A stretch of DNA of 64,000 bases from an uncultured delta proteobacterium (GCA_963815115.1 CAWFFN010000012.1:543260-607259); one strand, 5' to 3'; counted from the first letter of the stretch, positions 4,596 to 36,727 are shown. Notes: a model not told the origin generated them from the sequence alone. Made by a program: numbers and translations.

Positions 4596-6250
4596 TCAGC
4601 CCTCCACCACGGCGAAGGCCTCCCGGAGGATCGCGTCCGCGTCCTCCTGGATGCGGCGGAGGTGATCGGGACCGCGGAAGCTCTCGGCGTAGACCTTGTT
4701 CACGTCCTCGGTCCCCGACGGGCGGGCGGCGAACCAGCCGTGCTCGGCGATCACCTTGACGCCGCCGATCGGCGCGCCGTTGCCCGGTGCGGTGGAGAGG
4801 ACCCGCTGGATGGGCTCGCCGCCGAGCTGCCGCGCGCGCACGTGCTCCGGCGCCAGCGTGCCGAGCGCGGCCTTCTGCTCGGGCGTCGCGGGCGAGTCGG
4901 TGCGCTCGTACGCAGGCTCGCCGAACTCCCGCGTGAGCTCGCGCCAGTGCTCGCCGGGATCGCGACCCGTCCTGGCGGTGATCTCGGCGGCGAGCAGGCA
5001 CGGGATGATGCCATCCTTGTCCGTCGTCCAGACCGTGCCGTCGCGCCGCAGGAACGACGCGCCCGCGCTCTCCTCGCCGGCGAAGCCGAACCCGCCGTCG
5101 AGCAGGCCCTCGACGAACCACTTGAACCCCACCGGCACCTCGACCAGCCGGCGGCCGAGCTTCGCGGCGACGCGGTCGATCATGCCGCTCGACACCACGG
5201 TCTTGCCGACGGCGGCCTTCGCCGGCCAGCCGGGCCGGTTCGCGAACAGGTACGCGATGGCAACGCTCAGGTAGTGGTTCGGATTCAGCAGCCCCTCGCT
5301 CCGGCTGACGATGCCGTGGCGATCGGCATCGGTGTCGCACGCGAAAGCGACGTCGAAGCGGTCCTTCAGCTCGACCAGGCGCGCCATGGCCCAGGGTGAC
5401 GACGGATCCATGCGGATCTTGCCGTCCCAGTCGACGGTCATGAAGCGGAAGGTCGGATCGACCGCGCGGTTCACCACCTCGAGCCGCAGCCCGTAGCGCT
5501 CGGCGATCGCGTCCCAGTAAGCCACGCTGGCGCCGCCGAGCGGATCCACGCCCAGGCGGACGCTCGCGCCGCGGACGGCGTCGAGGTCCACCACGGTGCC
5601 GAGGGAGCCGACGTAGGTCTCGAGATAGTCGTGCGGGTGCGTGGTCGCCGCCTTGCGCGCGCGCTGCGTACGGGATGCGCCGCACGCCGCGCAGGCCCTC
5701 CGCCAGCAAGCGCGTTCGCCTGCTCCTGGATCCACCCGGTCACGCTCGTGTCGGCCGGGCCGGCCTCCGGCGGGTTGTACTTGAAGCCGCCGTCGGTGGG
5801 CGGGTTGTGCGACGGCGTGATCACGATGCCGTCGGCGCGACCGGTGGTGCGACCGCGGTTGTAGGTGAGGATGGCGTGCGAGATCACCGGGGTCGGCGTG
5901 TAGCCGGCGGTCCGGTCGACCATGACCTCGACCTCGTGTGCGGCCAGGACCTCGAGGGCGCTCGCGAACGCGGGCTCGGAGAGGGCGTGCGTGTCGATGC
6001 CGATGAAGAGCGGGCCGTCGGTGCCCTCCTTGGCGCGATGGCGGCAGATGGCCTCGGTGGTGGCGAGGATGTGGGCCTCGTTGAAGGCGACGTCGAAGGA
6101 CGAGCCGCGGTGGCCCGAGGTGCCGAACGAGACGCGCTGCGCGGGCACCGCGGGATCGGGCTGGCCCGTGTAGTACGCGGTCACCAGCCGCGGCACGTTG
6201 ACCAGCAGCGCGGGGTCGGCCGGCTTGCCGGCCAGCGGGCTCGTCGCCAT
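4596..6250 (-). pseudogene. pgm: phosphoglucomutase (alpha-D-glucose phosphate-specific) reading through three frames; two apparent +1 frameshifts near 5640-5710
   Basis: N-terminal frame (ATG 6250): [13 protein letters not shown]...FGTSGHRG...[29 protein letters not shown]. Middle frame: [20 protein letters not shown], matching E. coli LADGLKGVKRISLDEA. C-terminal frame: [14 protein letters not shown]...GVDPLGG...[15 protein letters not shown]...GEESAG... to the stop at 4596. The 1655 nt span is not a multiple of 3. Confidence 0.8.
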
Positions 6251-6254
6251 GACC

Positions 6255-6383
6255 TCAGTCCGCCCACACCGGGTCGCGCAGCGGGTTGTCCTGCAGGTGG
6301 ATCTGCCCGACCACCAGGTAGTTGGCGGCGTCCCAGTACGCCTGCATGCGGGCGAGCTGCACCTCGGAAAGCGGACCTGCCAT
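6255..6383 (-). CDS. 42-codon ORF with a strong RBS, encoding an N-terminal relic of phosphoketolase (Xfp)
   Basis: [42 protein letters not shown] matches the Xfp N-terminus (...[27 protein letters not shown]). GAGGAGAACG-ATG RBS. It lies in the 161 bp gap between the tkt stop and the pgm start, so there is no room for a full 800-aa Xfp. Confidence 0.5.
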
Positions 6384-6411
6384 CGTTCTCCTCGGGGGTT
6401 CTCCGGGCGGG

Positions 6412-8490: not shown

Positions 8491-8758
8491 GTCGAGCCCT
8501 CCCGGGCCGGTTACTTGGGAGTCGACCGGCGGTCGCGCGCGACGCTCGAGCCGGCGACGAACTCGGGAGCGAACCGGACGCTCCCCAGTCGGCGTGCCCC
8601 GGGGACTCGGGGCAAACCATGGCGTCTCAGCACTGGAACGACCATGGCGAGATGCTCGCTGCTCGCGCGAGGCACCTTCTCCGCAACCGGCACCCGTCCA
8701 CGTCCATCCATGGTGGTGAACGCACCTGCTATACCAGATTCCCGAGGCGCGCCACCGG

Positions 8759-9454
8759 TCAGGACTTGGCGGGTGCGGGGCGGGTCGCCGCGCGTAGCGC
8801 CTCCAGCTCCCAGCCTACGAGCTCGCCGATGCGCTCGAGGGTGACGTCGGGCGACGGCTGGCCGGCGAGCGCCGCCGCGTCGTGTGCGTAGTGTCCCTGA
8901 CGCGGGAACACCGTGGTGACCCGCTCGCTCCAGTGGGCCTTGATGGCGGTGCAGAGCCGCGGCTTGTCGTCCACGAAGACGTAGTGCTCCGCCGGAAAGC
9001 GCGCCTCGACGTCGGCCAGCTCGAGCTCCTTGTGGACGTAGATCAGGACGTTGCCCTCGACCGCCTCGAACAGCCCCGAGTGCTGCACCTTGAGAGGCTG
9101 GAACACGACGTCGCCGTCGGAGAGGATGGCCACCGGTCCCCAGGAGCGCGCGTGCTCGATCGCGTCGAGCGACCCCGGAAACAGCCGATTGGCGAACGCG
9201 TAGCCCAGCAGGAAGGTCGAGACCGCGAGCAGGTGGGGGCGGTGCGGATCCTCGATCCGGAAGCGCTGCAGGGCGCCGAGGTAGTCGGCGTAGCCGAGCT
9301 CCTGGCGGAGCTGCTCGAAGAGCTCCCAGTAGCGCTTCTGCTGGTCCTCGCCGACGGTTCGCCCGAGGTGGCGGCGCATGTCGGCGACGATGTGGTCGTT
9401 GTCGAGCAGCGTGTTGTCGACGTCGAAGAGCGTCACCACCGCGGAACGCGACAT
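8759..9454 (-). CDS. HAD-superfamily hydrolase
   Basis: N-terminal FDVDNTLLD is the DxDxT motif I. Motifs II-IV (ILSDGD, VFVDDKP) are present. Confidence 0.75.
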   Translation of the reverse strand: MSRSAVVTLFDVDNTLLDNDHIVADMRRHLGRTVGEDQQKRYWELFEQLRQELGYADYLGALQRFRIEDPHRPHLLAVSTFLLGYAFANRLFPGSLDAIEHARSWGPVAILSDGDVVFQPLKVQHSGLFEAVEGNVLIYVHKELELADVEARFPAEHYVFVDDKPRLCTAIKAHWSERVTTVFPRQGHYAHDAAALAGQPSPDVTLERIGELVGWELEALRAATRPAPAKS

Positions 9455-10641: not shown

Positions 10642-11580
10642 CTAGCAGGCCCGGCGGCTCGCAGGGAAGAGCGGACGAAAAAGTCGGGCCGGGACAGGCA
10701 ATCGCCCGTCCCGGCCCGGTTGATGGACCGCGCGGCGCGCGGCGAGGGTTGCGGTTAGTTGTCGAGGAACGCGCCGCTGGGCGACGCCGCAGAAGCTGTC
10801 CGGCGAGGTGTTGGCGAGGATGCCAGTGATGAGGCCGGTGAGCTGGGTTCCGGTAGTCAGTGCGTAGCACGGAGGCGTGGCTCCCGGGACGTCGGCGCAG
10901 ACCTTGTCGATCGAGTCGGCGGTCTTCCCCGCCGCCTTGTCGATGGCCGCCTGCGTGGCGGGGTCGGGCACCGTCGGCGGCATGCCGGCGAACACGCACT
11001 GATTCGCGCCGATCTTCCCGTTGAACGCGTTGGTCACGCACTTGGAGACGGCCTTGCCGAAGCTGCCGACGTACTTCACGAGGGCCTTGGCGACGCCGTC
11101 CTCACACTTGGCCTGATCCTTGGTGGGCGTCATGTTGGTGTTCTCGAGGCAGAACACCGCAGGGCCGACGGTATCGACGTTGGTCTCGGCCGAGGCCACG
11201 AAGCCAGTGCCACCCGGACAGTCACTCGGAGTGTTGTCCGCGTAGCAGTCGGGACAGTCCTTCGTGCAGCCCTTCGTGATCCCCGCCACGGCCTTCTGCT
11301 CGGCGCCCTTGCCGGTGATGGCGTCGCTGATGCAGGTGGCCGTCGTGCCGCCATAGGGGGGCGTGCAATCGGTGTAGGGGCCATTGGTCTTGCGCGCCGT
11401 CGAGAGGCACTTCATGGCGCACTTGGCCTTCGAGCTGACGAACTTCGCGCTCGTCTTCGACTGGCCGGTCTCGCACTTGAGCTCGTCCTTGTTTCCGGGT
11501 GCCACCTGGGCAAAGACCGGGGACGTGACGAAGCAGAGCGCTCCTGCCGCCAGGGCGATTCCCCGGAGACGTCCTTTCAT
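10642..11580 (-). CDS. secreted Cys-rich protein (helical K/A-rich domain with paired cysteines)
   Basis: ATG at 11580 with GGAGGG as RBS. Signal peptide MKGRLRGIALAAGALCFVTSPVFAQ. Repeated KCxxxxKxxAKxxxxKxKC patterns resemble the N-domains of the 26237 and 60382 proteins. Confidence 0.6.
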   Translation of the reverse strand: MKGRLRGIALAAGALCFVTSPVFAQVAPGNKDELKCETGQSKTSAKFVSSKAKCAMKCLSTARKTNGPYTDCTPPYGGTTATCISDAITGKGAEQKAVAGITKGCTKDCPDCYADNTPSDCPGGTGFVASAETNVDTVGPAVFCLENTNMTPTKDQAKCEDGVAKALVKYVGSFGKAVSKCVTNAFNGKIGANQCVFAGMPPTVPDPATQAAIDKAAGKTADSIDKVCADVPGATPPCYALTTGTQLTGLITGILANTSPDSFCGVAQRRVPRQLTATLAARRAVHQPGRDGRLPVPARLFRPLFPASRRAC

Positions 11581-18941: not shown

Positions 18942-20814
18942 GCGAGCTCTCCGCGGCGCCAGGCGGGAGTGCGTAGAGGGCGGACCCGCCGGCACGCACC
19001 ACGGGAGCGCCTGCCCGGTCGAGGAACGCCCGCCACAGCCCGGTGACCTGGGCCTCGTAGGGATCGCCGGCCGCCTTCAGGTCGTTCTCATCCACGGCGA
19101 CGTGCGTCGCGCCGAGCCGGCGGGCTGCGTCGCCGAGAGCATCGACCGTGTTCACGTGCCGGTAGTCGACGAGACCCTGCTCGAGGTAGCTCATCAGCAC
19201 GAAGGGCCGCTCGATGAAGTAGGGGTGGGGGATCTTCTCGAACACGAGCACGCGTCCGGTCGCGGGGATGGCCTGGTTGGCCTGGTGCCAGAAGACATAG
19301 CGGTCCGAGTAGCGGGAAAGGAAGACCTCGGGGGCGAGGCGCCCGAAGGCGACGCGCACCTGGTCCGGCCACATGGGGCGGAGCATGCGGCTCACGAGGA
19401 GCAGGTTGCCGCCGACGGTGACCGCCACCACCAGACAGAACAGGCGCCGCCCGCACAGCGCCCGCGCCGCCGGCGTCGCGGCCGCGATCAGGAGCGCGAG
19501 CCCGGGAAGCACGTAGCGCGGGTGCGCCCACGCCCCGACTGCGATGATCGCGACGTAGCCGGCTCCGATCGCGGCCACCGCCAGCGCGGCGCCCCGTCGC
19601 TCCCGGAGCAGGACCAGCGCCGGGAGGAAGGCCAGGCTCCACGGGCTCGTGTCCTGTCCCTGTCGCTTGCCCTTCTCGAACGACTCCGGATGCATGGTGA
19701 GATCCCACGGGAAGCGCGCCACCTCGGTGCCCCGGTAGGGCTTGCCGCCGCGCTGCGAGGCCTCCGTGGTGCGGTACTGGTCGTAGTACAGGTCGAGATA
19801 CGCGGCCGCCTCGGTACTCCAGTTGCGCCCCGCGAACACCCTCTGGCCGAAGGGGTAGAGAGGATTTCCGGTCTCGACCAGGTTGCGTACGTACCAGGGC
19901 GAGAGCAGCACGAGCGCGAGCACGCCGAAGCTCAGCGCGGCGCCGCCGGCGCGTCCGAGCGCGAGGCGGCGGCGGGCGAGGACGGCGAGGACGCCGATGC
20001 CCACCAGCGTCGGCACGAGCAGCGCCATGATCTTGGAGCCGCCCGCGAGACCGGCCATGATGCCCGCGCGTCGCAGGTCGCCCGCCCGCTCGCTGCTTGC
20101 CCAGTCGAGCAACGCCGAGACGGCGAGCGCGGCGTAGAGCACCACGCTCGTGTCGGTTCCTGCGCGGGTCATCTGCGACCAGCACATCCCGGTGGTGAAG
20201 AACACGGCGCCGGCGACGGCTCCCAGCCGATCACCGAGATGGCGGCGAGTGAGCGTCGCCAGGGCGAGCGCAGCCATCACGCCGGCGACGGCGTTCAGCA
20301 GCCGCGCCAGGACGTCGCCGCGCAGCGCGAAGGCGATCGTGAAGAGAAAGTTCTCGAGCCACTGCTGCTGTCCCCAGAAGGTCCAGGGTGTGGGCACGAG
20401 GCCGCCGGCGAGCGCGTAGAGCCGCGGGTAGACGAGATGGTACTTCTCCTGGTCGCCGCCCACCGGCGGCGCGAACCACGTCGGCGCCTCGATGAGCAGC
20501 AGCAGGGCACAAGCGGCCACGAGAACCCACGTCATGAGCCCGCGCGGCGCGCGCACCGCGCGCAGGGCAGCGATGAGAGGCGAGCCGCCCGCGACGAGCG
20601 CGATCGCGCCCGCGATCGCGAGGGGCAGGGGGCGGAGCACTCCGGCGGCGGCGAGCCCGAGCCCGACCAAGCTGGCCAGCCCGAGGCCGGTGGCGAGGCC
20701 CGCCAGCAGATGCTCGTGGGGCTGGTTCGGCAGCGCGCTCGCGGCGCGCAGCGCGAGCAACCCGGCCGCGGCGCTGGCTGCGAGCACCGCGAGCAGCAGG
20801 AGCAGATCGATCAC
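18934..20814 (-). CDS. GT39/PMT-ArnT-like membrane glycosyltransferase with a C-terminal soluble domain
   Basis: Multi-TM N-terminal half with PMT/ArnT-like loop motifs (ALAGGLVPTPWTFWGQQQW; TGNPLYPFG). Overlaps the flippase start by 8 nt. The start is uncertain; a GTG at 20814 was chosen. The long upstream extension is low-complexity. Confidence 0.55.
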   Translation of the reverse strand: MIDLLLLLAVLAASAAAGLLALRAASALPNQPHEHLLAGLATGLGLASLVGLGLAAAGVLRPLPLAIAGAIALVAGGSPLIAALRAVRAPRGLMTWVLVAACALLLLIEAPTWFAPPVGGDQEKYHLVYPRLYALAGGLVPTPWTFWGQQQWLENFLFTIAFALRGDVLARLLNAVAGVMAALALATLTRRHLGDRLGAVAGAVFFTTGMCWSQMTRAGTDTSVVLYAALAVSALLDWASSERAGDLRRAGIMAGLAGGSKIMALLVPTLVGIGVLAVLARRRLALGRAGGAALSFGVLALVLLSPWYVRNLVETGNPLYPFGQRVFAGRNWSTEAAAYLDLYYDQYRTTEASQRGGKPYRGTEVARFPWDLTMHPESFEKGKRQGQDTSPWSLAFLPALVLLRERRGAALAVAAIGAGYVAIIAVGAWAHPRYVLPGLALLIAAATPAARALCGRRLFCLVVAVTVGGNLLLVSRMLRPMWPDQVRVAFGRLAPEVFLSRYSDRYVFWHQANQAIPATGRVLVFEKIPHPYFIERPFVLMSYLEQGLVDYRHVNTVDALGDAARRLGATHVAVDENDLKAAGDPYEAQVTGLWRAFLDRAGAPVVRAGGSALYALPPGAAESSHG

Positions 20815-21019
20815 GACGACCCCCGGAGGTAGCCGAGCCAGTAGATCGCGTAGATCGCCGCGGCCCAGACGGCGAGCACCAGCCGGAGGATCACGGCGGC
20901 GCTCCGGCGAGGGGCTCCTGGGGGCACATGGGCGCGGGAGAATAGCGGGAAGCCTCCCGGATGACGAGAGCAACGAAGCCCGCTTACGTTGTGGCACCTG
21001 CGGGGGTCCAGCGACGCTG

Positions 21020-21049
21020 TTCCCAATCCCGACGGTGCCCGCGTATACT
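21020..21049 (+). promoter_or_regulatory. candidate promoter TTCCCA-N18-TATACT for the mntA-hepT operon (leaderless start)
   Basis: An AT-rich TATACT box sits 6 nt before the GTG at 21056 in a 70% GC background. Confidence 0.3.
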
Positions 21050-21055
21050 GCGCCG

Positions 21056-21463
21056 GTGACCGCCATTGACGACATCCGCGGCGTACTGGATCAGCGCGAC
21101 GATGTCCGCCTCGCGTACGTCTTCGGTTCCGTCGCCCGCGGGCACGCCCGGCCCCGCAGTGACGTCGACGTGGCGGTGCTCTTCGAGGGGGAGGCCACGC
21201 CGGGGGTGCTGGACCATTTCACCGAGGACCTCGAAGACGCTGCGGGCCGACGGGTCGATCTCATCGATCTCGCGACGGCTCCTCCCCTTCTGGCGCATCA
21301 GGTCGTGTCCACGGGCACCTGCATCGTGTGTCGCAACCCGAGGGAGCGTGCGTCCTTCGAGACCAGGACCGTCATCCGCTATCTCGACACTGCGCATCTC
21401 CGAAAGCTCCAGCACAGGTATCTCGCCAAACGCGTACAGGCGCGTCATGACGATCGAGCCTGA
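21056..21463 (+). CDS. mntA: MntA-type nucleotidyltransferase antitoxin (type VII TA)
   Basis: GTG start. AYVFGSVARGHARPRSDVDVAVLF is the GSxxRGxxxxxSDxD minimal nucleotidyltransferase motif. 135 aa. Confidence 0.75.
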   Translation: MTAIDDIRGVLDQRDDVRLAYVFGSVARGHARPRSDVDVAVLFEGEATPGVLDHFTEDLEDAAGRRVDLIDLATAPPLLAHQVVSTGTCIVCRNPRERASFETRTVIRYLDTAHLRKLQHRYLAKRVQARHDDRA

Positions 21464-21875
21464 CGTCGTCAGGCGCAAGCTTCTCGAGATCAACGAGGCC
21501 ACGGGGCACCTGCGTTCGTGGATCCCGGTTACAATCGAGCGGCTCGAGACGGACCAGCAACTCCGCTGGGCCGTCGAGCGGGGCCTGCAGGTCGCCGCCG
21601 AGGCGCTTTTCGACGTCGGGGCGCACATTCTTACAGCCGAATTCCAGGAGGCTGTGGACGAATACCGGCACATTCCGAAGCGACTCCTAGCCCGAGGCGT
21701 CCTGTCGTCGGAGACCGCTGCAAAGCTGAAAGGCCTCGCCGGCTTTCGCAATGTCCTTGTGCACGAGTACGCCGAGATCGACCTGAAGCGCGTTCACGCT
21801 GGGCTCGAGCGACTCGGCGACTTCGACGCGTTCGTCTCGGACGTGGAGCGCTGGCTGCAAGAGAGGACGGGGTGA
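21447..21875 (+). CDS. hepT: HepT-type (DUF86) RNase toxin
   Basis: The RX4HXY motif is RNVLVHEY. 142 aa. Overlaps the mntA 3' end by 17 nt. Confidence 0.8.
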   Translation: MTIEPDVVRRKLLEINEATGHLRSWIPVTIERLETDQQLRWAVERGLQVAAEALFDVGAHILTAEFQEAVDEYRHIPKRLLARGVLSSETAAKLKGLAGFRNVLVHEYAEIDLKRVHAGLERLGDFDAFVSDVERWLQERTG

Positions 21876-22151: not shown

Positions 22152-23018
22152 CTATAGGGAGATATGGAAGCAAGAACACGGGAAATTGTCAGCACCCACA
22201 CAGGATGATCCAATAGGACAATGGCCGCCGCATTGGGGAAACGTACCCCCGCAGACGGGGGGTGGGGCACAGCCGCACGTTCCACCGAAGTTGACGCCCA
22301 CACATCTCATCCCGTTAGGGCAAGTGCCGTTGCAGGCCGGCCTAGATCCCCTACACGTGAAGATCATCGTGGTCGTTGTGGTCGTGGTCGTTGTGGTCGT
22401 GGTCGGGGTCATCGGCGGTGAGCAGGTGCCCTCGGTCACCGGCTTTGCAACCTTGAACTGCTTCGTGCCGTCGTTGGTGACCTGCCCGTCCGCGAAGCGA
22501 ACGTCGTAGGTGTCGCCGCCCTCCCCGACCTCGAGCCGCATGCAGCCGTCCGTGCCGGGGTTGGGTGGCAACACGGCAATCGCCCCGAGCTGGCCGATGG
22601 CGACGGCCTTGATCCGGAAGACCCCGCCACCCGATCTCTTCAGCTGCGCGACTTTGACCGGGCCATTCTCGCCCTTCGAGTCCTTGTACTTGAAGCCCCT
22701 GACGGCATCGCCGCTCCAGAACGGCTGCCCGGTCAGTGCGCTCGTGCCTCCGGGCAAGGTGAACGTCTGCTCGCTCGACGTACCGCCGTTGGCCGTGAGC
22801 GTGAGGGTCGCACCCGAGCCGGCGGGGTCACCCACGATGGTATCGGGGCTCCCCACCTCCCTCGCTTTGACCACGACCTGCCGCCTGGCGGGCGTGCTCG
22901 GATTCTTCACTACGAGCTGGTCGCCGAGGATGGTCTGGTCGGCGGCGCCGGCGGGCCGTGCCGCCGTCACCGTCAGGGCAAGCAGCAGGGCGATGTGGGT
23001 CGTCGGACGATGAAACAT
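22152..23018 (-). CDS. secreted protein with a poly-Thr (T13) linker and a C-terminal Cys-rich CPxGxxC module
   Basis: ATG at 23018 with GAGGAGG as RBS. Signal peptide MFHRPTTHIALLLALTVTAARPAGAA. An (ACC/ACG)13 tract at 22371-22412 precedes CNGTCPNGMRCVG...CGGHCPIGSSCVG. The last ~25 codons have atypically low GC3. Confidence 0.6.
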   Translation of the reverse strand: MFHRPTTHIALLLALTVTAARPAGAADQTILGDQLVVKNPSTPARRQVVVKAREVGSPDTIVGDPAGSGATLTLTANGGTSSEQTFTLPGGTSALTGQPFWSGDAVRGFKYKDSKGENGPVKVAQLKRSGGGVFRIKAVAIGQLGAIAVLPPNPGTDGCMRLEVGEGGDTYDVRFADGQVTNDGTKQFKVAKPVTEGTCSPPMTPTTTTTTTTTTTTMIFTCRGSRPACNGTCPNGMRCVGVNFGGTCGCAPPPVCGGTFPQCGGHCPIGSSCVGADNFPCSCFHISL

Positions 23019-23734: not shown

Positions 23735-25075
23735 ATGAACTCAGTGCACGCACGTTTTTCCGCAGTGCTCGTAGGCGTCGTCGGGCTCGCGGCCGTCGTC
23801 GTGACGACGAGCCGCGATGCCGGGGCGGTGCTGCCGCCCGGCAACACGGTGCAGCAGTGGAACAAGATCGCAGAGGACACGGTCGTTGGCTCGGGCGCGT
23901 TCCAGGTCGAAGGCCTGATCTACATGGCCTACGTGTCCGCTGCCGTGTATGACGCGGTGACCTCGATCGAGGGTGGCTACGAACCGTACGCGACCGATAT
24001 CCCGGCGCCGCCAGGGGCATCGACGGAGGCGGCGGTGGTCGAGGCCGCCTACCGAACGCTTCTCAACTACTTCCCGACGCAGGGAGCGACACTCATGCCG
24101 CTCTATGACGGAAGCCCTGGCGCTCATCGCCGACGGGAAGGCGAAGGATGATGGCAAGGCGATCGGGCTCACGGCTGAGGACGGCATCATCGCTCTCCGT
24201 ACGGGCGACGGGCGCCTGACGCCGATCGGCACGACATCGCCGTTCCCGACGCTGCCGCAGGGCCCGGGCGTCTGGCGGTTGACGCCCCCTGGGTTCCTCG
24301 TGCCGCAGGTACCCTGGGCGGGATCGGTCACGCCCTTCGTGCTCGAGCGAGGAGACCAGTTCCTGCCCGGTCCTCCGCCCTCGCTCGGGAGCAAGCGGTG
24401 GGTGAGGGACTTCAACGAGATCAAGACCTACGGTGCGGCGAGCGGTAGCGCTCGGACCGACGAGCAAACTGCGGCCGCGCGGTTCTGGACGGCGAACGTC
24501 ATCAGGCAGTACAGCCGCCTGCTCCGTGACGTCGCCGATGCCCACGCACTTGATCTGCTCCAGACGGCGCGGCTCGCGGCGATGGTCGAGCTCGTCGGCG
24601 CCGATGCGGGAATCTCGGTGATCAACGCCAAGTACCACTACCTCTTCTGGCGGCCGGTGACGGCGATCAACCAGACCGCGGTCACGGCCTGACGGCTTCG
24701 GGCCGGTGCCCGGGTTCGACGACGGGAATCCGGCGACGATCGAAGACACCACGTGGCAGCCGCTCCTCACGACGCCGAACCATCCCGAGTACCCCAGCGC
24801 CCACGGCGTGTTGACCTCGGCGATGGCGGAGGTGTTCCGCAAGTTCCTGGGGACGAGCAAGGTCGATCTCGACATCCACGGCTTCGACGCGGCGGGGCTC
24901 GCCAGGGAACCTGGACGCCGTGCGCCACTTCCACAAGATAGGCGCGCTCCCCAGGGAGATCATCGAGGTGAGGATCTGGGGAGGCCTCCACTACCGCAAC
25001 TCGGATGAAGTGGGCGTCGCGGTCGGCCAGAAGGTTGCCCGCTACGACTTGGGGCACGCTTTCAAGGCGCGTTGA
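23735..25075 (+). pseudogene. vanadium-dependent haloperoxidase / PAP2 acid-phosphatase-like secreted protein, disrupted by at least 3 frameshifts
   Basis: Frame 1: signal peptide MNSVHARFSAVLVGVVGLAAVVV...LNYFPTQGATL. Frame 2: TEALALIADGKAKDDG...AKYHYLFWRPVTAIN. Frame 3: GNPATIEDTTWQPLLTTPNHPEYPSAHG. Frame 4: NLDAVRHFHKIGALPREIIEVRIWGGLHYRNSDEVG...AFKAR*. WRPVTAI, HPEYPSxH and GxHYRxD are the conserved VHPO/PAP2 motifs. Frame switches fall near 24100, 24700 and 24905. Confidence 0.6.
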
Positions 25076-25213
25076 ACAGACGCAGTCGAGATGAAGGGAG
25101 CCGGGCCCGCGGTGGGGCCCGGCTCGCCCTCCGTTGACAGGCCACGTCAGCGATGCAGTGACGGGAGGCTCCGGTGAGCACGTCAGCCCGTGTAGAGAGG
25201 CGTGATCGCGGGT

Positions 25214-25780
25214 TCAACCTGCTCGTCGCGGCAGGAGCGAGCGGGACCACACGCGACTCGATCTCCGGCTGCCGGCGCTCGTCGAGCACCCGGCGCAGTG
25301 GCGTGCGCCGCGCGACGACCTGAGCTTGCTGCTCCGCGCCGTGACGAAGATCTTCGCAGTCCTCCTGATCAGGTCGGCCACACTCCTCAGATCGTTGTTC
25401 TCCATGAACGAGCGGCCGAGCATCAGCACGCGCCTGGTGCGCGCGCGGACGACGAAGAAGCCGCTCTCGGGCACCAGGCCGTTCTAGCCGCGAGACAGCA
25501 GCAGGTACTTGCCGCCCAGGCCGCGATCGGGGCCGGGCAGCCGAAATCGATGACCCAGCGCCATCAGAAATCGTCGATCGTGCCGAGCGTATCGGGCGGC
25601 GTTTCGAGCATCATCGGCCCCTTGCTCAGGTCGATGACGCCGACGAAATAGCGTGTCCGCGTTCGCCGTCAGGAACAGCGACTTGGCATGGATCAGCTCG
25701 GAGAAGATGAGGATATCGCTATCCTTCACGCCGGCGTCGCCGAAACCTTTGTGAACGGCTGCCGCGTTGACGCCCTGCAT
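25214..25780 (-). pseudogene. phospholipase-D-like (HKD) gene fragments in two frames
   Basis: ...IHAKSLFLTANAD... is HxK-like and ...MLGRSFMENNDLRS... resembles GSANxDxRS. The pieces are short, interrupted and in different frames. Confidence 0.3.
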
Positions 25781-25990
25781 AGCTGCTCGGCGCTGGGCGC
25801 GACTGCCCTCGGTGACGTGCTACAGCGCGGCGACGGCGGCAACGACTATCGCGGAGGTGGGGTGCGGTGCTGCCGAGCTGTACACCGAGCGCCTGGTCAC
25901 CACTCAGGGTGACCGACCGATAGCGGCCGTGCTGTTCGGTTCGGCGACCCGACGACCGGTACTCCTCCTTCCTTCTGGGCCCGCGCGACG

Positions 25991-26236: not shown

Positions 26237-27069
26237 ATGGTGCCCGGCTCTCTCCGCCGCCTCGCCTGGCTCGTTCCCCTCTGCGCCCTGATCGGCTCCG
26301 CTGGAGCGGCGGGCGCAGGCACCCCCGCGCAGACGTGTGCCGCCGCGAAGCTGAAGGCGGCGGGCACGGAAATCGGGGGCGAGATGGGCTGCTACGGGAA
26401 GGCGAAGCAGGCGGGCGTTGCCGTCGATGGGGGCTGTCTCTCGAGGCAACGGATGAAGGCGGACAGGCGGATCAACTCGCTTGACGGCGCCTGCTCCGGC
26501 ACGGCGGCGGCCATCGACGCGGCCGTCGATAATTGCGTGGCCGCGTTCCTCAGCGACGACCCCGGCAACGGGGTGTGCCCGGCGGCGAGCGCGCAGAAGA
26601 TCGGCAAGGGCGGGAAGGCGGAACTCGCGTGTCAGGCGAAGGAAGTCTTGAGGCCGGGCATGTTCGCGGCGTGTGATGAGAAAGCCGACGGCAAGACGGG
26701 CGCGGGCCTAGAGAACGCGGGCGGCTGCGTGAATCCGACGGCCGTCCTCACGGACATCGACAACTGCAACACCGCCATTGACGCCATCATCGAGCAGACG
26801 ACGACCACCACCACCGAGCGACGACCACCAGCGAGCAGACGACCACCACCGAGCAGACGACCACCACCACCATCCCGTCCCCCTGCACTAGTAGTTCCGG
26901 TGGTAGTCCCTGCGATGCTTCTTGCCCTGGCTCTGTTTGCGCCCCGGAGTCGCCGCCTCCCACGGGGCATGGGCATCGCTGTCCATCGCCCCCCCAGCAC
27001 CTTAGCCCCGGGGATGCCTGCGTAGATGCAGACATCTGCGATTATGTTGAGTGCCAGCTCGGACGGTGA
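26237..27069 (+). CDS. secreted Cys-rich protein with an (EQTTTT)4 linker; frameshifted inside the linker repeat (likely pseudogene or assembly indel)
   Basis: Signal peptide MVPGSLRRLAWLVPLCALIGSAGAAGA, then a K/A-rich paired-Cys helical domain. At about 26819, gagcGacgacc replaces the expected gagcAGacgacc. After the shift the frame reads QTTTSEQTTTTEQTTTTTIPSPCTSSSGGSPCDASCPGSVCAP...CVDADICDYVECQLGR* with a stop at 27067-27069. Confidence 0.55.
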
Positions 27070-28282
27070 CTGTGGCTCGGGCAAGGTCTGCTTGAGGCCC
27101 TTTCCCGTCCCCTTCGGCAGCTGCAATGGTCCAGTTACAACGTGCTGCTCCTCATGCGCATCCTATTCTTGCTTGATTTCCCAGGCGCCCGCGTGCGGCG
27201 GCACGTGCCCGAGCGGACAGGTCTGCGCGGTGACTCCGGTGACTCATGCGTCCTGGCGTCCGACCAACACGTGGACTTCCTCACCACGTGGGGCAGCCCG
27301 GGCAGCGTGTGACGGACAGTTCAGCGGGCAGTTCTGCGGCAGCCCATGGCGTCGCCGCGGATGCGAGCGGGCAGGTCTTCGTGGCAGACTCCGGGAACAT
27401 CCGCATCCAGAAGTGCACTGCATCGTGCCCGTTCGTCACCAAGTGGGGCAGCTGCGGGCAGCGGGGACGGGCAGTTCAACCACCCGGTGGGGGTCGCCGT
27501 GGATGGGAGCGGGAACGTCTTCGTCGCCGACAATTCGGCAACCACCGCATCCAGAAGTTCGACAACACCGGGACGTTCGTGACCACGTGGGGGAGCGCGG
27601 GCAGCGGGGACGGGCAGTTCATTAACCCGGTGGGGGTCGCCGTGGATGGGAGCGGGAACGTCTTCGTCGCCGACTCGCGCAACAACCGCATCCAGAAGTT
27701 CACGAACACCGGCACCTTCCTCACCACGTGGGGCAGCCTGGGCAGCGGGGACGGGCAGTTCCATACCCCGCAGCGGGGTTGCCGTGGATGGGAGCGGGAA
27801 CGTCTTCGTCGCCGACGTCGCCAACAACCGCATCCAGAAGTTCACGAACACCGGCACGTTCTTGACCAAGTGGGGCAGAATGGGCAGCGGGGACGGGCAG
27901 TTCAATGAGCCCCATTGGCCTCGCCGTGGATGGGAACGGGAACGTCTTCGTCGCCGACACGCAACAACCGCATCCAGAAGTTCACGAACACCGGCACGTT
28001 CTTGACCAAGTGGGGCAGCGCGGGCAGCGGGGACGGGCAGTTCGACCAGTCCCGTCGACGTCGCCGTGGATGGGAGCGGGAACGTCTTCGTCGCCGACTC
28101 CGCCAACAACCGCATCCAGGAGTTCGACGAACACCGGTACCTTCCTCGCCACGCGAGGCTGCCCGGGCAGCGGGGAGGGGCAGTTCAATTTCCCGCACGG
28201 CGTCGCCGTCGGATGCTCCAGCGGAAATGTGTTCGTCGCCGACGAGTTCAACAACCGCATCCAGAAGTTCGCGTGTCCATAG
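27026..28282 (+). pseudogene. NHL-repeat (six-bladed beta-propeller) gene with seven tandem 141-144 nt repeats, about one indel per repeat. Probably the continuation of the 26237 gene.
   Basis: The Cys-rich lead-in (DCGSGKVCLRPFPVPFGSCNGPVTTCC...CGGTCPSGQVCAV) follows the previous stop in another frame. The repeats encode TKWGSxGSGDGQFNxPxGVAVDGSGNVFVADSxNNRIQKFTNTGTFLT but are scattered over six overlapping ORFs in three frames. The last repeat ends ...NNRIQKFACP*. Confidence 0.55.
27281..28282 (+). repeat. 7 tandem DNA repeats (about 141-144 nt) encoding NHL blades
   Basis: Blocks such as ggcagcggggacgggcagttc and gtcgccgtggatgggagcgggaacgtcttcgtcgccgac recur at approximately 27433, 27577, 27721, 27862, 28001 and 28144. 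Confidence 0.75.
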
Positions 28283-28459
28283 TGATAGGCATTGGGCTAC
28301 GTCGCCCAGCGCGAGCAGCTCCTCGCCCCTTCCCGGACCGCTCCGGGTTCGCGGCGTGGGGCTGCAACAGTGCGAGGTGCCTGCGACGTCCCGGGGTGAG
28401 AGGCGACATTCCCGCCCGCCTCGCCGCCGCCGCGGGTGGCTCGCCGCGCGCGGTCGGCC

Positions 28460-29962
28460 TCAGTCCCCGCCGCGCTGCGAGTACGCGAACGGGCCGGCGA
28501 CCTCGACGTGGAGGGTGCCATCGGGGTCGGTCGTCATGCCGCGCGCGCTGGTGAGCTGACGGAGTCCCGTGGCGTCCGGCCGCATCGCGAAGAGCTGATC
28601 CCCGAACGGGTTGGCGCCGACGGGATCGCAGCTCGACTCGAACAGCACCGTCCCGGTGACCTGATCGACCGCGGGGCTGAGTTCAAAGATTCCGCACCCC
28701 GGGGCGTTAAACACGCAGCCCTGCTCGGTCCGCCGGCCGTCCCACGGGAGGTGGGTGAGCTGGCGCAGGTGGTCACCGCGGGTGCTGATGGTGAAGAGCT
28801 GGCAGATCTCGCCTGGGTTCTCGCCGAAGGGGTTCGCCGACGCTGCGATGAGCACCTGGCCGCGAACCATCGGGGAGACGCCTTGCGCGCCGCCGGTGAA
28901 GGTGTCGGAGCGGTTGAATGCGGTCAGCTGCACGATGCTCTTGCCGTCGATCAGGAAGATCTCGCGCGCGAAAGCATCAGGATCGTCAGGGCGATTCACC
29001 GCAGGCCTGTCGGGAAAGAGAACCAGGACGGTATGCGGGTGCGCACCTGTGACGCCGAACTGCGACACGAGCTGCGCGCCGGGGGCCACGGTGATTGGCG
29101 GGACCTCCGTCTCCCTTCCACCATGGATCCCGACCTGGAAAGCCCTCCAGGAGTCATCACTGGTGGAACCGGAGTAGAAGCCGATGGTCCGGCGGTTGAG
29201 GAAGCTTGGAACCGAGATACCGGGATCATCGAACTCCAAATTCGCGACCCGCGGTTGATGCGTGAGCTGGCGTCGCCGGCCGGAGCGCGAGTCGAGGAGA
29301 AAGACTTGCGGCGCTTCGTACCCGGCCGTGGCTGGGCCGAGGTCGACGAATACGATCGTCCGGCCGTTGGGACTGACTCCCCACCGGACTCCCCCAAATA
29401 TTGTGTAAATGCGGCTGGCTGGCCCGAGCCGCCGGAGCCCCGTTCCGTTTGCCTTGACGAAGAAGATGCCCTCCTCGGGCGGCTCGGGCGTGGCGGCCGG
29501 CAGCTCTGAGAACTCCTTCGTCACGTCGAAGACCACCCCGGAGCCATCCGGTAGCACCGCCATGTTCTGGAAGACGCCCATACGGATGAACCAAGCGCCC
29601 AAGCGGCTTCCGCCCAATTCGAGGCACAGCCCGGTCGGATCGGGCGCCGGCATCGAGGGTCCGACCGCCATGACCGGGACCGGGTCGCAGTTCCCGCGCC
29701 GGATGAGGAGCATCTGTTGCAGCGAGGTCCGACCCTGCGGGTCGGTGGTGCACTCGTTCACCACGTAGGCCAGCGTCCGGATGCGCGCGCCCGGCGCGGT
29801 GCAGGTGCTCCGCTCGCCGCAGGTCGCTCGGCAGTCTCGCCGCTCCTGACCGCCCCCGGGACACGTCTGCTTGCACGCGGCCAGCTGCTCCGTGCAGGTG
29901 CTGGGGCACGCCGCCGCCGCCGCAGGTCTTCGCGTGGCTCCGAGCGATAGCTCGACGATCAC
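28460..29962 (-). CDS. secreted hypothetical protein (N-terminal Cys-rich stretch plus beta-propeller-like body)
   Basis: 500 aa from a GTG at 29962. No canonical start gives a signal peptide, but in-frame upstream codons CTG...SRRLAVVLAVIVELSLGA would. An in-frame stop sits at 30026-30028. Confidence 0.5.
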   Translation of the reverse strand: MIVELSLGATRRPAAAAACPSTCTEQLAACKQTCPGGGQERRDCRATCGERSTCTAPGARIRTLAYVVNECTTDPQGRTSLQQMLLIRRGNCDPVPVMAVGPSMPAPDPTGLCLELGGSRLGAWFIRMGVFQNMAVLPDGSGVVFDVTKEFSELPAATPEPPEEGIFFVKANGTGLRRLGPASRIYTIFGGVRWGVSPNGRTIVFVDLGPATAGYEAPQVFLLDSRSGRRRQLTHQPRVANLEFDDPGISVPSFLNRRTIGFYSGSTSDDSWRAFQVGIHGGRETEVPPITVAPGAQLVSQFGVTGAHPHTVLVLFPDRPAVNRPDDPDAFAREIFLIDGKSIVQLTAFNRSDTFTGGAQGVSPMVRGQVLIAASANPFGENPGEICQLFTISTRGDHLRQLTHLPWDGRRTEQGCVFNAPGCGIFELSPAVDQVTGTVLFESSCDPVGANPFGDQLFAMRPDATGLRQLTSARGMTTDPDGTLHVEVAGPFAYSQRGGD

Positions 29963-30241
29963 CGCGAGGACAACTGCGAGACGACGGGACAGGCTTGACA
30001 GGTTACTGCCATACTCCGCGGCGCGTCAACTAGGCGGCTCCCGATCAATCCTCGCCCGGTCGATCGCGATACCGAACCCCGCACCAGCCTCGCCAACCGC
30101 CGGCGCTCACCGCGAGGACGCGAAAAGCCAGCGACTAGCGACGCGACGCAGGGATGAGAAGCTCTTCGACGGCACCTGAGAAGCCTTGACGCCCAGAGCC
30201 GATCGCTGTATCGAGTTTAAACCTGATAATTCCCTGCTGAG

Positions 30242-32428: not shown

Positions 32429-33724
32429 CTACCGGGCCGGGTGGCTGGGCTCCGGTGCGGGATTCGCGGCGCCGTCAGGACGGTAGGTGCAGTAGTAGCC
32501 CGTGGTCACGGTGGCCGCGAGGTGCTCGCCGAGCGACGGGTGGTGCTTGGCAATCTGTGTCATTGCCGACCGGATGCGGCGCGTGATCGCGACTCGCTCG
32601 CGCTCGACGTCGGCCGAGACCCGCCGCACGCGACCAGCGGGTCCCACGGCCGCCTGCAGCTCGTCGACGAGCAGGTCGAGCTCGGAGCGGAGGGTCTCGG
32701 CGCGGCCGAGGTCGTTGCGCTGCTCCGCGTCCTCCAGCTCCTCGCGCAGCTCGACAACCCGGCGGCGATACTCGGCTCTCGCTTGCGCGTCGAGTACCTC
32801 GCCGCCGTCACCGGGCAAGGGAAGTATCCCTGCATCCGGCGCAGGAGCGTCTCTCGCCACCGCGGATCCGCCGGAGGGCGTGATGGAGTCGAGCTCGCGC
32901 ACGTGAATGTCCCGGCCCGGACAATGCACGAGGTGCGCCAGGAGCGCGAGACCGCGAGAATGGCGCAGCAGCACGGTCGTCCCCCCATATCCGATCCGCC
33001 AGAAGTCTCCGTCCTGCTCGAGGACGGGCGACGCGGCCTCCGGACTGGCCGATATGGCTTCCTCGGTTTCACCGGTCGCTTCGCGGCGTGCCGCGAGCGC
33101 TCGCTCGAGAAGCCAGCGAAATCCGGCGCCGGCCTCCTCTTCGGCGGCGAGGTTGCCGCGTGCAACGCGCCTCCGCTCCAGCACGTGGGCAACCGCCACG
33201 GCGATCGGCAACAGCACCCAGCCAGCGACCGGCATGTTGCCCGCGTGTGACACTGCGAGCAGGGCGGTGGCCGCGACGAGCCCGGCGATCACGGCGGGGG
33301 CCGGACGGGCGGCCTCAGTCCAGGACACGGTGTACTCGCAGGCTGGCTGGTCCTCTGCCAGGCATCCTTCTTCTCGCAGCGTGGCCCGCTTGCCTCCGTG
33401 GCGCTCCACGACGCCGAGTGCCCAGGCCTGCCGCCCGAGGCACGCCGCCCGATCGCCCTTGTCGGATGAGCTGTAGCGCAGGTGTGCCCGGCCCGGACCG
33501 TGATCGACGACGACGAGGTGCCCGCTCGCCGCCCCACGCGATCGCCGCCGCGCCGCCATCCGGTACGTGACGCCGGGCGCCACCAGACGGAAGAGGAGAC
33601 GCCGCCACCCATGCGCGCGCTGCCGCGCAACGTCGGCTGCAATCGCGTGACCCATGGAACCGGACACGACCCGAAACTTAGCAGGCTTACCGTTCTCGGA
33701 CCCGCCTTGTCTACCCATTGGCAC
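32429..33724 (-). CDS. hypothetical protein with two TM helices, probably co-transcribed with the 30916 gene
   Basis: 1-nt gap to the downstream start. TM segments VIAGLVAATALLAVSHAGNMPVAGWVLLPIAVAVAHVL. The N-terminal region is low-complexity and the start is uncertain. Confidence 0.35.
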   Translation of the reverse strand: MPMGRQGGSENGKPAKFRVVSGSMGHAIAADVARQRAHGWRRLLFRLVAPGVTYRMAARRRSRGAASGHLVVVDHGPGRAHLRYSSSDKGDRAACLGRQAWALGVVERHGGKRATLREEGCLAEDQPACEYTVSWTEAARPAPAVIAGLVAATALLAVSHAGNMPVAGWVLLPIAVAVAHVLERRRVARGNLAAEEEAGAGFRWLLERALAARREATGETEEAISASPEAASPVLEQDGDFWRIGYGGTTVLLRHSRGLALLAHLVHCPGRDIHVRELDSITPSGGSAVARDAPAPDAGILPLPGDGGEVLDAQARAEYRRRVVELREELEDAEQRNDLGRAETLRSELDLLVDELQAAVGPAGRVRRVSADVERERVAITRRIRSAMTQIAKHHPSLGEHLAATVTTGYYCTYRPDGAANPAPEPSHPAR

Positions 33725-35122: not shown

Positions 35123-36727
35123 ATGCGCGGCATCCGTCTCGCCGTCCTCGTCCTGTCCCTTGCCCTCGCGGCGACCGCCCTGGCCGAGCCGCGCATCGTG
35201 AACGGCGTGTTCACCTCGCTCTATCCCTCCACGGGCGCGCTGCTGTTCGGCAACGACCCGGCCACCGCCTTCACCTACTGCTCGGGCACGCTGATCGGGT
35301 GCGACACCTTCCTGACGGCCGCCCACTGCGTATGCGATACCACGGGCCCGGACTGTCAGTCTCTCGATCCGGCCAGCCGCATGGTCTTTCTCCAGCACGC
35401 CGGCTTCTTCCAGCTGTCGAGCATCGCCGTGCGGACGGATTTCAACTTCCCGGTGGGTGATGTCGCCGTCCTGAAGCTCGCGACTCCCGTCACGGCCATC
35501 CGGCCGTCGCCGATCGCCCAGTCGGCTCCGTCGATCGGGACGGCGGGGACGATCGTCGGCTTCGGTCGGAGCGGCGGCGGAAACCTGGACTACGGCCTCA
35601 AGCGTGCCGCCTCGGTGACGACCGCGGGGTGCTCGTTCGGCATCTCCAACACCACCTCGGTGTGCTGGAGCTTCACCGGCGCCGGTGGCAACACCTGCAA
35701 CGCCGACTCGGGCGGCCCTCTCTTCATCGGCTCCGGCGGTGGCCTCACCGTCGCTGGCGTGACGTCGGGGGGCTCGTCGAACAGCTGCCTGCCGACGGAC
35801 AACAGCTTCGACGCGAACGTCGCGCACTACGCGTCGTACATCGCCCAGCAGGGCGGCTCGGACCTGAATCACACCACCTGCGGCGCCGGCCCGCAGGCGG
35901 GCGATCCGGGAGCGACCATCGACGCCATCGTCGGGGCGCTCTCGGTCGACGTGCCGGCGCAGCTGCAGGCCTTCAAGGTGACGGCCGGCACGCAGGAGCT
36001 GCGCATCGCGATGAATGCGGTCGACGACGGCGTCTCCGATTTCGACATGTACGTGAAGCACGGTGCTGCGCCGACGATGACCGACTTCGATTGCCGCCAG
36101 GACGGCCAGGGCCAGTTCGGGTTCTGTGACTTTCCGGCACCCGCCACGGGCATCTGGTACGTCATCGTGCAGCGATTCTCGGGGCAGGGCACCTACCAGC
36201 TGACGGCGACCATGATCGGCGGGCAACCCACTGTGTGCGGCGACGGCGTGCGCGAGGGCAGCGAGCAGTGTGACGGTGGCGACGATCTCGCCTGCCCCGG
36301 CTTCTGCGGCACCGGCTGCACCTGCAGCCCGGCGTGCAACCTGACCGACCTCACGGTGACTCGCCTGCGCGCGAGCCGCAGCCTCAGCGCGCGCCTGACG
36401 CTCGCCAACACGCACGGCACCTACGACGGCCTCGATCCGCGCAGCTCGCCGCTGACGCTGGTGCTCGACGACGGCGGGACGCCCGTTCGCATCACCATCC
36501 CCGCGAACGATCCCGGCTGGGAGAGGTCGAACCCCGCGCGCGGCTCGTACCAGTGGCGTGGGGACGGAACGCTCGCGGGCCTGCGACGCGTGACGGTCCG
36601 CGACAAGACCGCGTCCCGGGGACGCCTCGAGATGCGCTTCACCGGGCGCGACACGCCGACGATCGACGAGACGAGCGCGCGGGTGACGCTCGTCCTCGGC
36701 GGGTTCTGCGTCGCCAGCGCGCCGTGA
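35123..36727 (+). CDS. secreted trypsin-like S1 serine protease with a PPC domain and a Myxococcus-type Cys-rich repeat
   Basis: Signal peptide, IVNG, TAAHC and DSGGPL catalytic-triad motifs, then CGDGVREGSEQCDGGDDLACPGFCGTGCTC. Confidence 0.8.
   Translation: MRGIRLAVLVLSLALAATALAEPRIVNGVFTSLYPSTGALLFGNDPATAFTYCSGTLIGCDTFLTAAHCVCDTTGPDCQSLDPASRMVFLQHAGFFQLSSIAVRTDFNFPVGDVAVLKLATPVTAIRPSPIAQSAPSIGTAGTIVGFGRSGGGNLDYGLKRAASVTTAGCSFGISNTTSVCWSFTGAGGNTCNADSGGPLFIGSGGGLTVAGVTSGGSSNSCLPTDNSFDANVAHYASYIAQQGGSDLNHTTCGAGPQAGDPGATIDAIVGALSVDVPAQLQAFKVTAGTQELRIAMNAVDDGVSDFDMYVKHGAAPTMTDFDCRQDGQGQFGFCDFPAPATGIWYVIVQRFSGQGTYQLTATMIGGQPTVCGDGVREGSEQCDGGDDLACPGFCGTGCTCSPACNLTDLTVTRLRASRSLSARLTLANTHGTYDGLDPRSSPLTLVLDDGGTPVRITIPANDPGWERSNPARGSYQWRGDGTLAGLRRVTVRDKTASRGRLEMRFTGRDTPTIDETSARVTLVLGGFCVASAP

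Follow-up and report, generated by a model that had tools for sequence, protein, structure and literature searches.

An NHL beta-propeller gene split over three reading frames

The window, by which we mean the whole 64,000-nt stretch of DNA that was analyzed, contains a genuine gene that encodes a secreted modular protein and whose reading frame, as deposited, is broken twelve times (Table 1). The encoded parts follow one another as signal peptide, N-terminal Cys domain, Thr-rich linker, Cys-rich module(s), an aberrant NHL unit that we refer to as W1, and a six-bladed NHL beta-propeller (W2–W7). Comparing the translations in all three forward frames located the 12 breaks, each of 1–2 nt, and repairing them conceptually gives a product of 679 aa with no in-frame stops. 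The repaired protein matches the Pfam NHL model (PF01436) in seven stretches with a score of 195.6 bits (E 1.5e-59, cut-off 20), compared with 116.1 bits for its intact relative P0028, and its canonical blade reads G-x-G-x-GQF-x-x-P-x-GVAVD-x-x-GNVFVAD-x-x-NNRIQKF. Homologs of the repaired protein number in the thousands. The HMM score thus places the protein in PF01436, whereas in the deposited sequence the blades are split over three frames, and six blades in one continuous polypeptide are obtained only after the 12 conceptual repairs.

Tandem Repeats Finder (TRF) reports an array at 27348–28270 with a period of 142 nt, 6.5 copies and 84% matches, in which seven NHL units are discernible, W1 being degenerate and W2–W7 near-consensus. 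Conserved anchors are spaced 140–145 nt apart, where 141 or 144 nt would keep the frame, and the conserved NHL motifs switch frame between units. Overlapping ORFs in all three forward frames divide the gene among them (27026..27625, 27246..27908, 27346..27582, 27646..28005, 27905..28282, 27915..28559 and 28066..28554), and a Viterbi frame tracker based on codon usage, trained on the long genes of the window, detected 8 frame switches within 27348–28273. The breaks come to about nine in the seven units, with none in W3 or W7, and 2–4 of the 12 lie upstream of the repeats, the one at ~27229 falling on the junction between the Cys-rich region and W1. These observations bear out what a first-pass annotation of this DNA had described, namely seven NHL repeats whose frame shifts in nearly every unit, roughly one indel per unit, a gene scattered over overlapping ORFs in three frames, and a Cys-rich region out of frame with the gene that starts at 26237 (we place breaks in both the Thr linker and the Cys-rich region); the comparison of unit lengths that it had proposed is the one given by the anchor spacings.

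Over 1.5 kb the frame breaks average about 1 per 120 nt, a far higher density than in the remainder of the contig. Taking the NHL gene together with the VCPO-like gene next to it, 11 of the 15 indels are +1 insertions and the largest measures 2 nt. The inserted bases lie mostly outside homopolymers, and most of the sites are not simple-sequence tracts; these non-homopolymer insertions depart from the textbook long-read error profile, an observation that counts against an artefact. An antisense ORF of 264 aa at 27321..28115 was set aside as a by-product of high GC content, since the codon model places this region in the forward frames.

Table 1. Features of the NHL locus, its neighbours and the phosphoglucomutase gene (positions in the window)
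Feature	Position	Strand	Remarks
Phosphoglucomutase (PGM), housekeeping	4596..6250	-	insertions at 5708 (T) and 5667 (G), 41 nt apart
VCPO/PAP2-like secreted gene, non-repetitive	23735..25075	+	three single-base insertions: ~24109 (+1), 24690 (+1 T), 24894 (GGG to GGGG)
DUF1254-like relic, truncated	25100..25790	-	frame switches and in-frame stops; family by motif reading
Ancestral secreted modular NHL beta-propeller gene	26237..28282	+	ATG at 26237 to stop at 28282 via 12 repairs
Signal peptide and N-terminal Cys-containing domain	26237..26795	+	single ORF in frame +1, without indel
Thr-rich linker	26796..26870	+	18-nt repeat (TRF 26803-26868, period 18); break 1, A missing at 26819/26820
Cys-rich region including one 'CLISQAPACGGTCPSGQVC' module	26871..27224	+	break 2 at ~27055-27057 (+1)
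W1, aberrant degenerate extra NHL unit	27225..27419	+	three breaks (~27229, ~27307, ~27335) and a 12-nt DGQF duplication
Blades W2–W7	27420..28282	+	seven frame-breaking indels; orthologous by position to the six blades found in relatives
Frame breaks, upstream part	~26819 (-1), ~27055 (+1), ~27229 (-1), ~27307 (+1), ~27335 (+1)	+	frame tracing
Frame breaks, W2–W7	27453 (+1 T), ~27532-27538 (+2/-1), ~27771-27774 (+1), ~27909-27913 (+1, C run), ~27959-27963 (-2), ~28047-28050 (+1), ~28126-28129 (+1 G)	+	frame tracing
Intact neighbour gene	28460..29764	-	434 aa publicly, ORF to 29962; P0121 100% identical

Relatives of the NHL gene

An intact metagenomic relative of 619 aa (P0028) aligns over 100% of the repaired protein at 64% identity, across all repair junctions. 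Its contig (L001) has 75–84% DNA identity to the window, with 84% in the N-terminal part, and carries different neighbours. W2–W7 match the six P0028 blades one-to-one and in the same order, with blade-specific signatures kept.

A closer relative is found in an independent assembly with a syntenic locus (L006; ENA ERZ25039520 contig_18079), whose NHL gene is 88–99% identical to that of the window depending on the segment and whose flanks are 0.7–2.5% divergent. Mismatches and indel events of a length not divisible by three are unevenly spread along this comparison, amounting to 1.7% and 2 events in the VCPO-like gene, 2.5% and 4 in the intergenic DNA with the relic, 0.7% and 0 in the N-terminal domain of the NHL gene, 6.5% and 6 in the Cys region, 11.9% and 11 in blades W2–W7, and 0.8% and 0 in the 434-aa neighbour gene. 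At all alignable frame breaks of the window's NHL gene, including each site in W2–W7, L006 shows the repaired state, and its copy, which has six blades, keeps a single frame from the ATG across three Cys modules. Thus the A absent at 26819/26820 is present in L006, in a linker longer than that of the window, the extra base at 27057 is missing from it, and both P0028 and L006 stay in frame through the Cys-rich region. The L006 copy has two frame breaks of its own, and because both sit at positions other than those of the window, no NHL frameshift is common to the two assemblies.

The strong divergence of the blades between the window and L006 arises because L006 blades 2–5 are homogenized. The window blades keep the signatures of the outgroup P0028, and their substitutions are therefore genuine and shaped by selection. 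On the same grounds (P0028 signatures kept in the window, L006 being the homogenized copy) we rejected, as far as the substitutions go, the idea that the window array is a chimeric consensus of paralogs. W1 occupies the position of further Cys module(s) in P0028 and L006 and is unalignable with L006 (35 gap events); it may have arisen by a real rearrangement or may be a chimeric join. As an observation that speaks against an artefact, this abnormal unit could itself have inactivated the NHL gene.

A further assembly (L009; ERZ25039552 contig_66938), representing a related haplotype, has lost the NHL gene by deletion, and relatives carry transposases at the NHL locus. Sibling assemblies with 'contig_N' names have frame breaks in their own NHL arrays and in other ordinary genes. 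A search of GTDB representative genomes returned no orthologs, and a metagenome scan returned only N-terminal domains at 37–50% identity. The N-terminal Cys domain, the Thr linker and the 'CxISQAPACGGTCPSGQxC' modules were found only in P0028, L006 and a few metagenomic loci.

Neighbouring genes and the rest of the window

Intact relatives of the VCPO-like gene encode 445–446 aa (P0243, P0369 and P0367), and the public record holds the broken fragments of the window's own copy (P0366 and P0368). The syntenic copies in the window, L006 and L009 are 97–98.7% identical, and in a five-copy DNA alignment all three have the insertion at ~24109, which is missing from the two other copies. Shared by three independent assemblies, as is expected of a real mutation, this lesion is inherited, which makes the VCPO-like gene a true pseudogene of the lineage. 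The insertions at 24690 and 24894 are private to the window. The T at 24690 adjoins a patch of three private substitutions that reproduces the intact P0367 allele, and over the stretch that holds both insertions the repaired protein equals P0367 at 264 of 265 residues. Altogether the window branch of this gene has 12 private substitutions and 2 private indels, a ratio that is natural on its face and as such counts against an artefact, although the substitutions lie in two tight patches that, read from the alignment, are a mosaic rather than scattered decay.

On the other side of the NHL gene, the intact neighbour gene provides a check on assembly quality in this part. Its public form (P0121) has NCBI and ENA records that place it on a contig of 908,230 nt, and an exact-product look-up has its 434-aa form on record and not the 500-aa form of the longer ORF. 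A Logan contig from raw run ERR11523651 (L005) matches window 28327–30212 with 1 mismatch and 0 gaps (1885/1886 nt) and ends 45 nt short of the NHL gene; in a four-way alignment of the neighbour gene, neither the window nor this raw-read contig has any private change. The match of the adjacent 1.9 kb to the raw-read contig, like the clean state of the rest of the window, counts against an artefact. The same look-up by exact products (window 35123–36727, P0367, P0366 and window 26237–27025) recorded no read-level Logan contigs across the indel sites, and a literature search on the run and assembly accessions gave no matches.

The frame breaks of the NHL gene are no chance pattern: elsewhere in the window, more than 40 coding segments terminate cleanly at stop codons, as do almost all of those outside about 24–28.2 kb, and together with the raw-read match of 1885/1886 nt this led us to reject a genome-wide error rate. 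Given this clean background and the read-confirmed 1.9 kb beside the NHL gene, the assembly is good in general, and errors would therefore need to be strongly localized. Three flagged places in the window were intact on inspection; at 22429–23003 the frame tracker had raised a false alarm over an intact gene whose Cys-rich tail is low in GC, and at 32429..33724 over one continuous ORF. A further +1 near 10790 is possible.

The phosphoglucomutase gene carries two insertions that put Pfam domain I in a different ORF from domains II–IV, and its repaired product aligns to PDB 9v68_A without gaps over residues 1–541 (E 1e-248). These breaks are of the lesion type seen in the NHL gene and lie far from the block formed by the NHL and VCPO-like genes. 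The DUF1254-like relic, truncated and with stops in frame, is unlike all of these lesions.

Indels set against natural divergence at the locus

All 7 frame-breaking indels of W2–W7 fall in variable zones, which make up 36.9% of positions, and 0 in conserved blocks (0.369^7 ~ 9e-4); the unique N-terminal 559 nt likewise hold 0 indels. Differences between units by codon position are 0.116/0.073/0.135 in the window and 0.162/0.112/0.209 in the intact relative, that is, the window units show the pattern of the intact relative at a lower level, with no excess of substitutions.

We calibrated the natural ratio of substitutions to indels on the locus itself. In the neutral flanks the window and L006 differ by 55 substitutions and 7 indel events of 1–8 nt (about 8:1), and in L009 the neighbour gene shows 95 private substitutions against 6 indels of 1–4 nt (about 16:1). 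We considered whether L009 was error-rich and rejected this, as 95:6 resembles natural divergence, so it was used for calibration and the natural ratio at the locus was taken as 8–16:1. At this ratio the 12 indels imply 96–192 substitutions in the 1.48-kb part made up of the Cys and NHL regions. In simulations under natural ratios the probability that no stop arises is 0.3–8%, and the predicted motif damage is 17–32 changes at those 113 residues of W2–W7 which do not vary in the intact relative. No more than 3 such changes were seen, a level that 0 of 5000 simulations reached, and only a substitution:indel ratio of 2:1 or lower fits the observed motif conservation. The density of frame-breaking indels in the Cys and NHL part is several-fold above that of the neutral flanks.

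Measured against what a natural pseudogene would be expected to show, the NHL gene thus has its frame disrupted relative to its homologs (12 breaks with respect to P0028 and L006), and lacks a signature of relaxed selection, having 0 stops, at most 3 of 113 motif changes, and indels all of 2 nt or less. None of its alignable indels is reproduced in the independent data of the lineage (L006); the insertion at ~24109 in the VCPO-like gene alone is shared.

Origin of the frame breaks

We consider the NHL-gene indels to be most probably localized consensus errors, introduced where repeats, paralogs or strains differ within a strain-variable, partly decaying region, and from the sequence comparisons we put the probability of this reading at roughly 0.6. 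Reads piled at one position would be inhomogeneous there, and consensus building or polishing would then leave errors of 1–2 nt. Prone to this would be the short hypervariable segments that separate the conserved blocks within near-identical NHL blades and Cys modules, as well as genes such as the VCPO-like gene that have 94–98% identical copies in co-occurring strains or paralogs, while conserved blocks, where the reads all agree, would emerge clean. Such errors would overlie a region that is truly strain-variable, with an inherited VCPO frameshift, a relic, an NHL gene that is polymorphic for presence or absence, and relatives bearing transposases, and this regional heterogeneity would therefore make the consensus unreliable at the NHL locus. 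The indels are short and private to this assembly with a close relative in frame, and they occur without substitutions in conserved genes, a housekeeping gene among them. Private, unaccompanied by substitutions, confined to heterogeneous sites and present also in phosphoglucomutase, they bear the footprint of consensus error and not of mutation. The sequence comparisons show where the indels lie, how they are placed, that a close relative lacks them and that substitutional damage is lacking, while we infer both the error mechanism and a long-read origin of the assembly; the long 908-kb contig and the 'contig_N' names of its siblings suggest long-read metagenome assemblies.

Frameshift errors in assemblies built from long reads only resemble what we see in being 1–2-nt indels private to an assembly, free of substitutions and splitting conserved genes, and long-read consensus errors also cluster where repeats, paralogs or strains differ. 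They differ from the window in that its insertions are mostly not changes of homopolymer length and in its local density of about 1 per 120 nt, and the platform is here an inferred one.

The reading that survives next best, which we judge about half as probable, is that the NHL gene is a true and very recent pseudogene, having become dispensable perhaps after the rearrangement that gave rise to W1, with real 1–2-nt indels in a decaying strain-variable island. It retains substantial probability because the locus lies in a truly variable, partly decaying region: the adjacent VCPO-like gene has its inherited frameshift in three assemblies, the stop-bearing DUF1254-like relic sits between the VCPO-like and NHL genes, and transposases stand at the locus in relatives. 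With the NHL gene lost in one haplotype (L009) and its neighbourhood decaying, relaxed selection on it is plausible; moreover, the flank matches raw-read contig L005 and the fragments are present in the public record. However, twelve frameshifts with no stops and at most 3 changes in 113 residues, where 17–32 are expected, do not fit decay, nor does an NHL HMM score exceeding that of the intact relative, and a neutral process cannot reach an indel density several-fold over the neutral flanks. The indels also spare the conserved DNA blocks and the unique N-terminal domain, and none in the NHL gene is common to L006. Natural indels in bacterial pseudogenes are deletion-biased and span a broad range of sizes, and those in the flanks and L009 measure 1–8 nt; the indels here are biased to insertion and never exceed 2 nt. 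Classical pseudogenes in variable islands are alike in the disrupted ORF beside an inherited pseudogene and a relic, and in presence/absence variation, but the NHL gene of the window differs from them in having no stops, motif erosion or large deletions, in its insertion bias, and in indels that its closest relative does not have.

It appears improbable that near-identical tandem repeats were collapsed or chimerically joined, with a true unit number or order different from the one deposited and indels marking the bad joins. The units do have long identical stretches in common, the raw-read contig stops 45 nt before the array, and the odd W1, with the densest breaks and a 12-nt duplication, stands in place of the Cys modules of P0028 and L006, making a chimeric join at 27225–27419 possible. 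Yet W2–W7 and the six blades of P0028 agree in number and order, and the blades of L006 likewise number six; joining in-frame units at shared sequence should preserve the frame and would produce no +/-1 indels. The anomalies moreover extend beyond the repeats to the Thr linker, Cys region, VCPO-like gene and phosphoglucomutase, with four NHL-gene, three VCPO and two phosphoglucomutase indels outside tandem repeats. The array is therefore probably not collapsed, because blade number and order match those of relatives and the lesions reach unique DNA.

The first-pass annotation had offered two readings, extensive decay into a pseudogene as part of a degrading island, or an artefact of repeat collapse in which the true number of repeats might differ. 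The island stands, given the VCPO frameshift, the relic and the loss in L009, while extensive decay of the NHL gene itself does not agree with its 0 stops and its HMM score. An artefact is what we favour, though not by collapse, against which speak the orthology of the blades and the lesions in the Cys region, VCPO-like gene and phosphoglucomutase. A different repeat number finds no support for W2–W7, given their one-to-one match to the six blades of relatives, and could apply only to W1.

It is very unlikely that the indels are real and stem from an indel-specific mutational or recombinational process favouring the hypervariable DNA that encodes the loops of NHL blades and Cys modules, in a secreted family undergoing rapid remodelling among co-existing strains by changes in module copy number, blade homogenization and gene loss. 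Slighter still is the chance of frameshift-specific biology (programmed frameshifting or recoding, phase variation, or hypermutation aimed at the variable blade loops). In its favour one could cite the restriction of the indels to hypervariable loop-coding stretches and the strong difference of the array between strains (11.9% against L006), but most sites are without the simple-sequence tracts used in phase variation, like lesions occur in phosphoglucomutase and the VCPO-like gene, no diversity-generating element was noticed nearby, and no known recoding mechanism could read through twelve shifts that go in both directions.

The analysis serves above all as a caution. In public annotation the NHL gene, the VCPO-like gene and phosphoglucomutase appear as fragments, and without read support such fragments ought not to be taken for pseudogenes or for signs of genome decay. 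Consensus error and decay can be told apart without reads by measuring the substitution:indel ratio locally, in neutral flanks and in close relatives, and further by asking whether indels avoid conserved blocks and whether any are common to independent assemblies.

With its seven matches to the NHL model and canonical blades, the repaired protein resembles bacterial six-bladed NHL proteins (PF01436; '6-bladed beta-propeller', 'YncE-like'), from which the window gene differs in its 12 interruptions as deposited and in adding a family-specific Cys domain, Thr linker and Cys modules. The novelty of this secreted NHL protein family is ordinary. The family itself, combining the Cys domain, Thr linker and variable Cys modules with a six-bladed NHL propeller, is strain-variable and may merit study.

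Modular variation and loss of the NHL gene

The Cys module of the NHL gene, 'C.ISQAPACGGTCPSGQ.CG....SCEC', differs in copy number among close relatives, and the length of its Thr linker, built from an 18-nt repeat (TTTTEQ), is also variable, with the ortholog on L006, a syntenic contig of another assembly, carrying 41 nucleotides more than the window. Blades 2–5 of the L006 ortholog are near-identical to one another, which we attribute to concerted evolution or gene conversion; the window blades, unlike these, retain ancestral blade-specific signatures. A second gene in the window, itself intact, encodes a protein in which a signal peptide and a domain precede a Thr linker and then two Cys modules, after which it stops. 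Because its homolog on L009, a contig of a related haplotype, goes on with eight Cys modules and NHL blades, this gene is probably a truncated paralog belonging to the same modular family as the NHL gene.

The NHL gene itself is entirely absent from L009, where the sequence corresponding to window position 25780 is joined directly to that of 28429 (L009 4539-6528 aligned with window 25529-25780 and 28429-30153). The L009 copy of the neighboring 434-aa gene is strongly diverged and broken; we counted 95 private substitutions in it, along with 6 indels. L009 keeps part of the DUF1254-like remnant, which in the window contains in-frame stops (DDF*W and SRG*NG) and looks like a relic of natural decay.

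Features of the window and of related contigs
Feature	Location	Strand	Description
Cys module, NHL gene	window 27140-27230		1 copy
Cys modules, NHL ortholog	L006 ~8650-8950	reverse	3 copies
Cys modules, intact metagenomic relative	P0028		2 copies
Cys modules, paralog	L009 6750-9437		8 copies
Thr linker, NHL gene	window 26803-26868		
Blades 2-5, NHL ortholog	L006 9122-9686	reverse	
Putative truncated paralog	window 22152-23018	-	
DUF1254-like remnant	window 25100-25790	-	several frame switches, both ends truncated
Phosphoglucomutase	window 4596-6250	-	single-base insertions at 5708 and 5667
42-aa ORF	window 6257-6384	-	between transketolase and phosphoglucomutase
Cys-rich secreted protein gene	window 11580..~10764	-	candidate extra G at ~10790
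MNT/HepT-like pair	window 20492-21875	+	
TonB-dependent receptor	L007 1-1206	-	split, with Plug and barrel encoded by overlapping ORFs
Deoxyhypusine synthase	L008 20127-21119	+	two pieces

Split genes elsewhere

The housekeeping phosphoglucomutase gene is divided into two ORFs by insertions spaced 41 nt apart, and after repair its protein aligns to solved phosphoglucomutase structures without gaps (E 1e-248). The adjoining 42-aa ORF is probably a gene relic, since it carries a motif that we take to be like the phosphoketolase N-terminus. Close to the 3′ end of the Cys-rich gene there appears to be an extra G (TGCGGC[G]TCGCCC), with which the ORF is ~120 nt longer and without which the terminus '...FCGSPSGAFLDN*' is regained. 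Further split genes were found in the sibling assemblies represented by contigs L007 and L008. An apparently intact toxin-antitoxin pair, comprising a nucleotidyltransferase (MNT) and a HepT-like protein, lies upstream of the broken block in the window, roughly 2 kb away.
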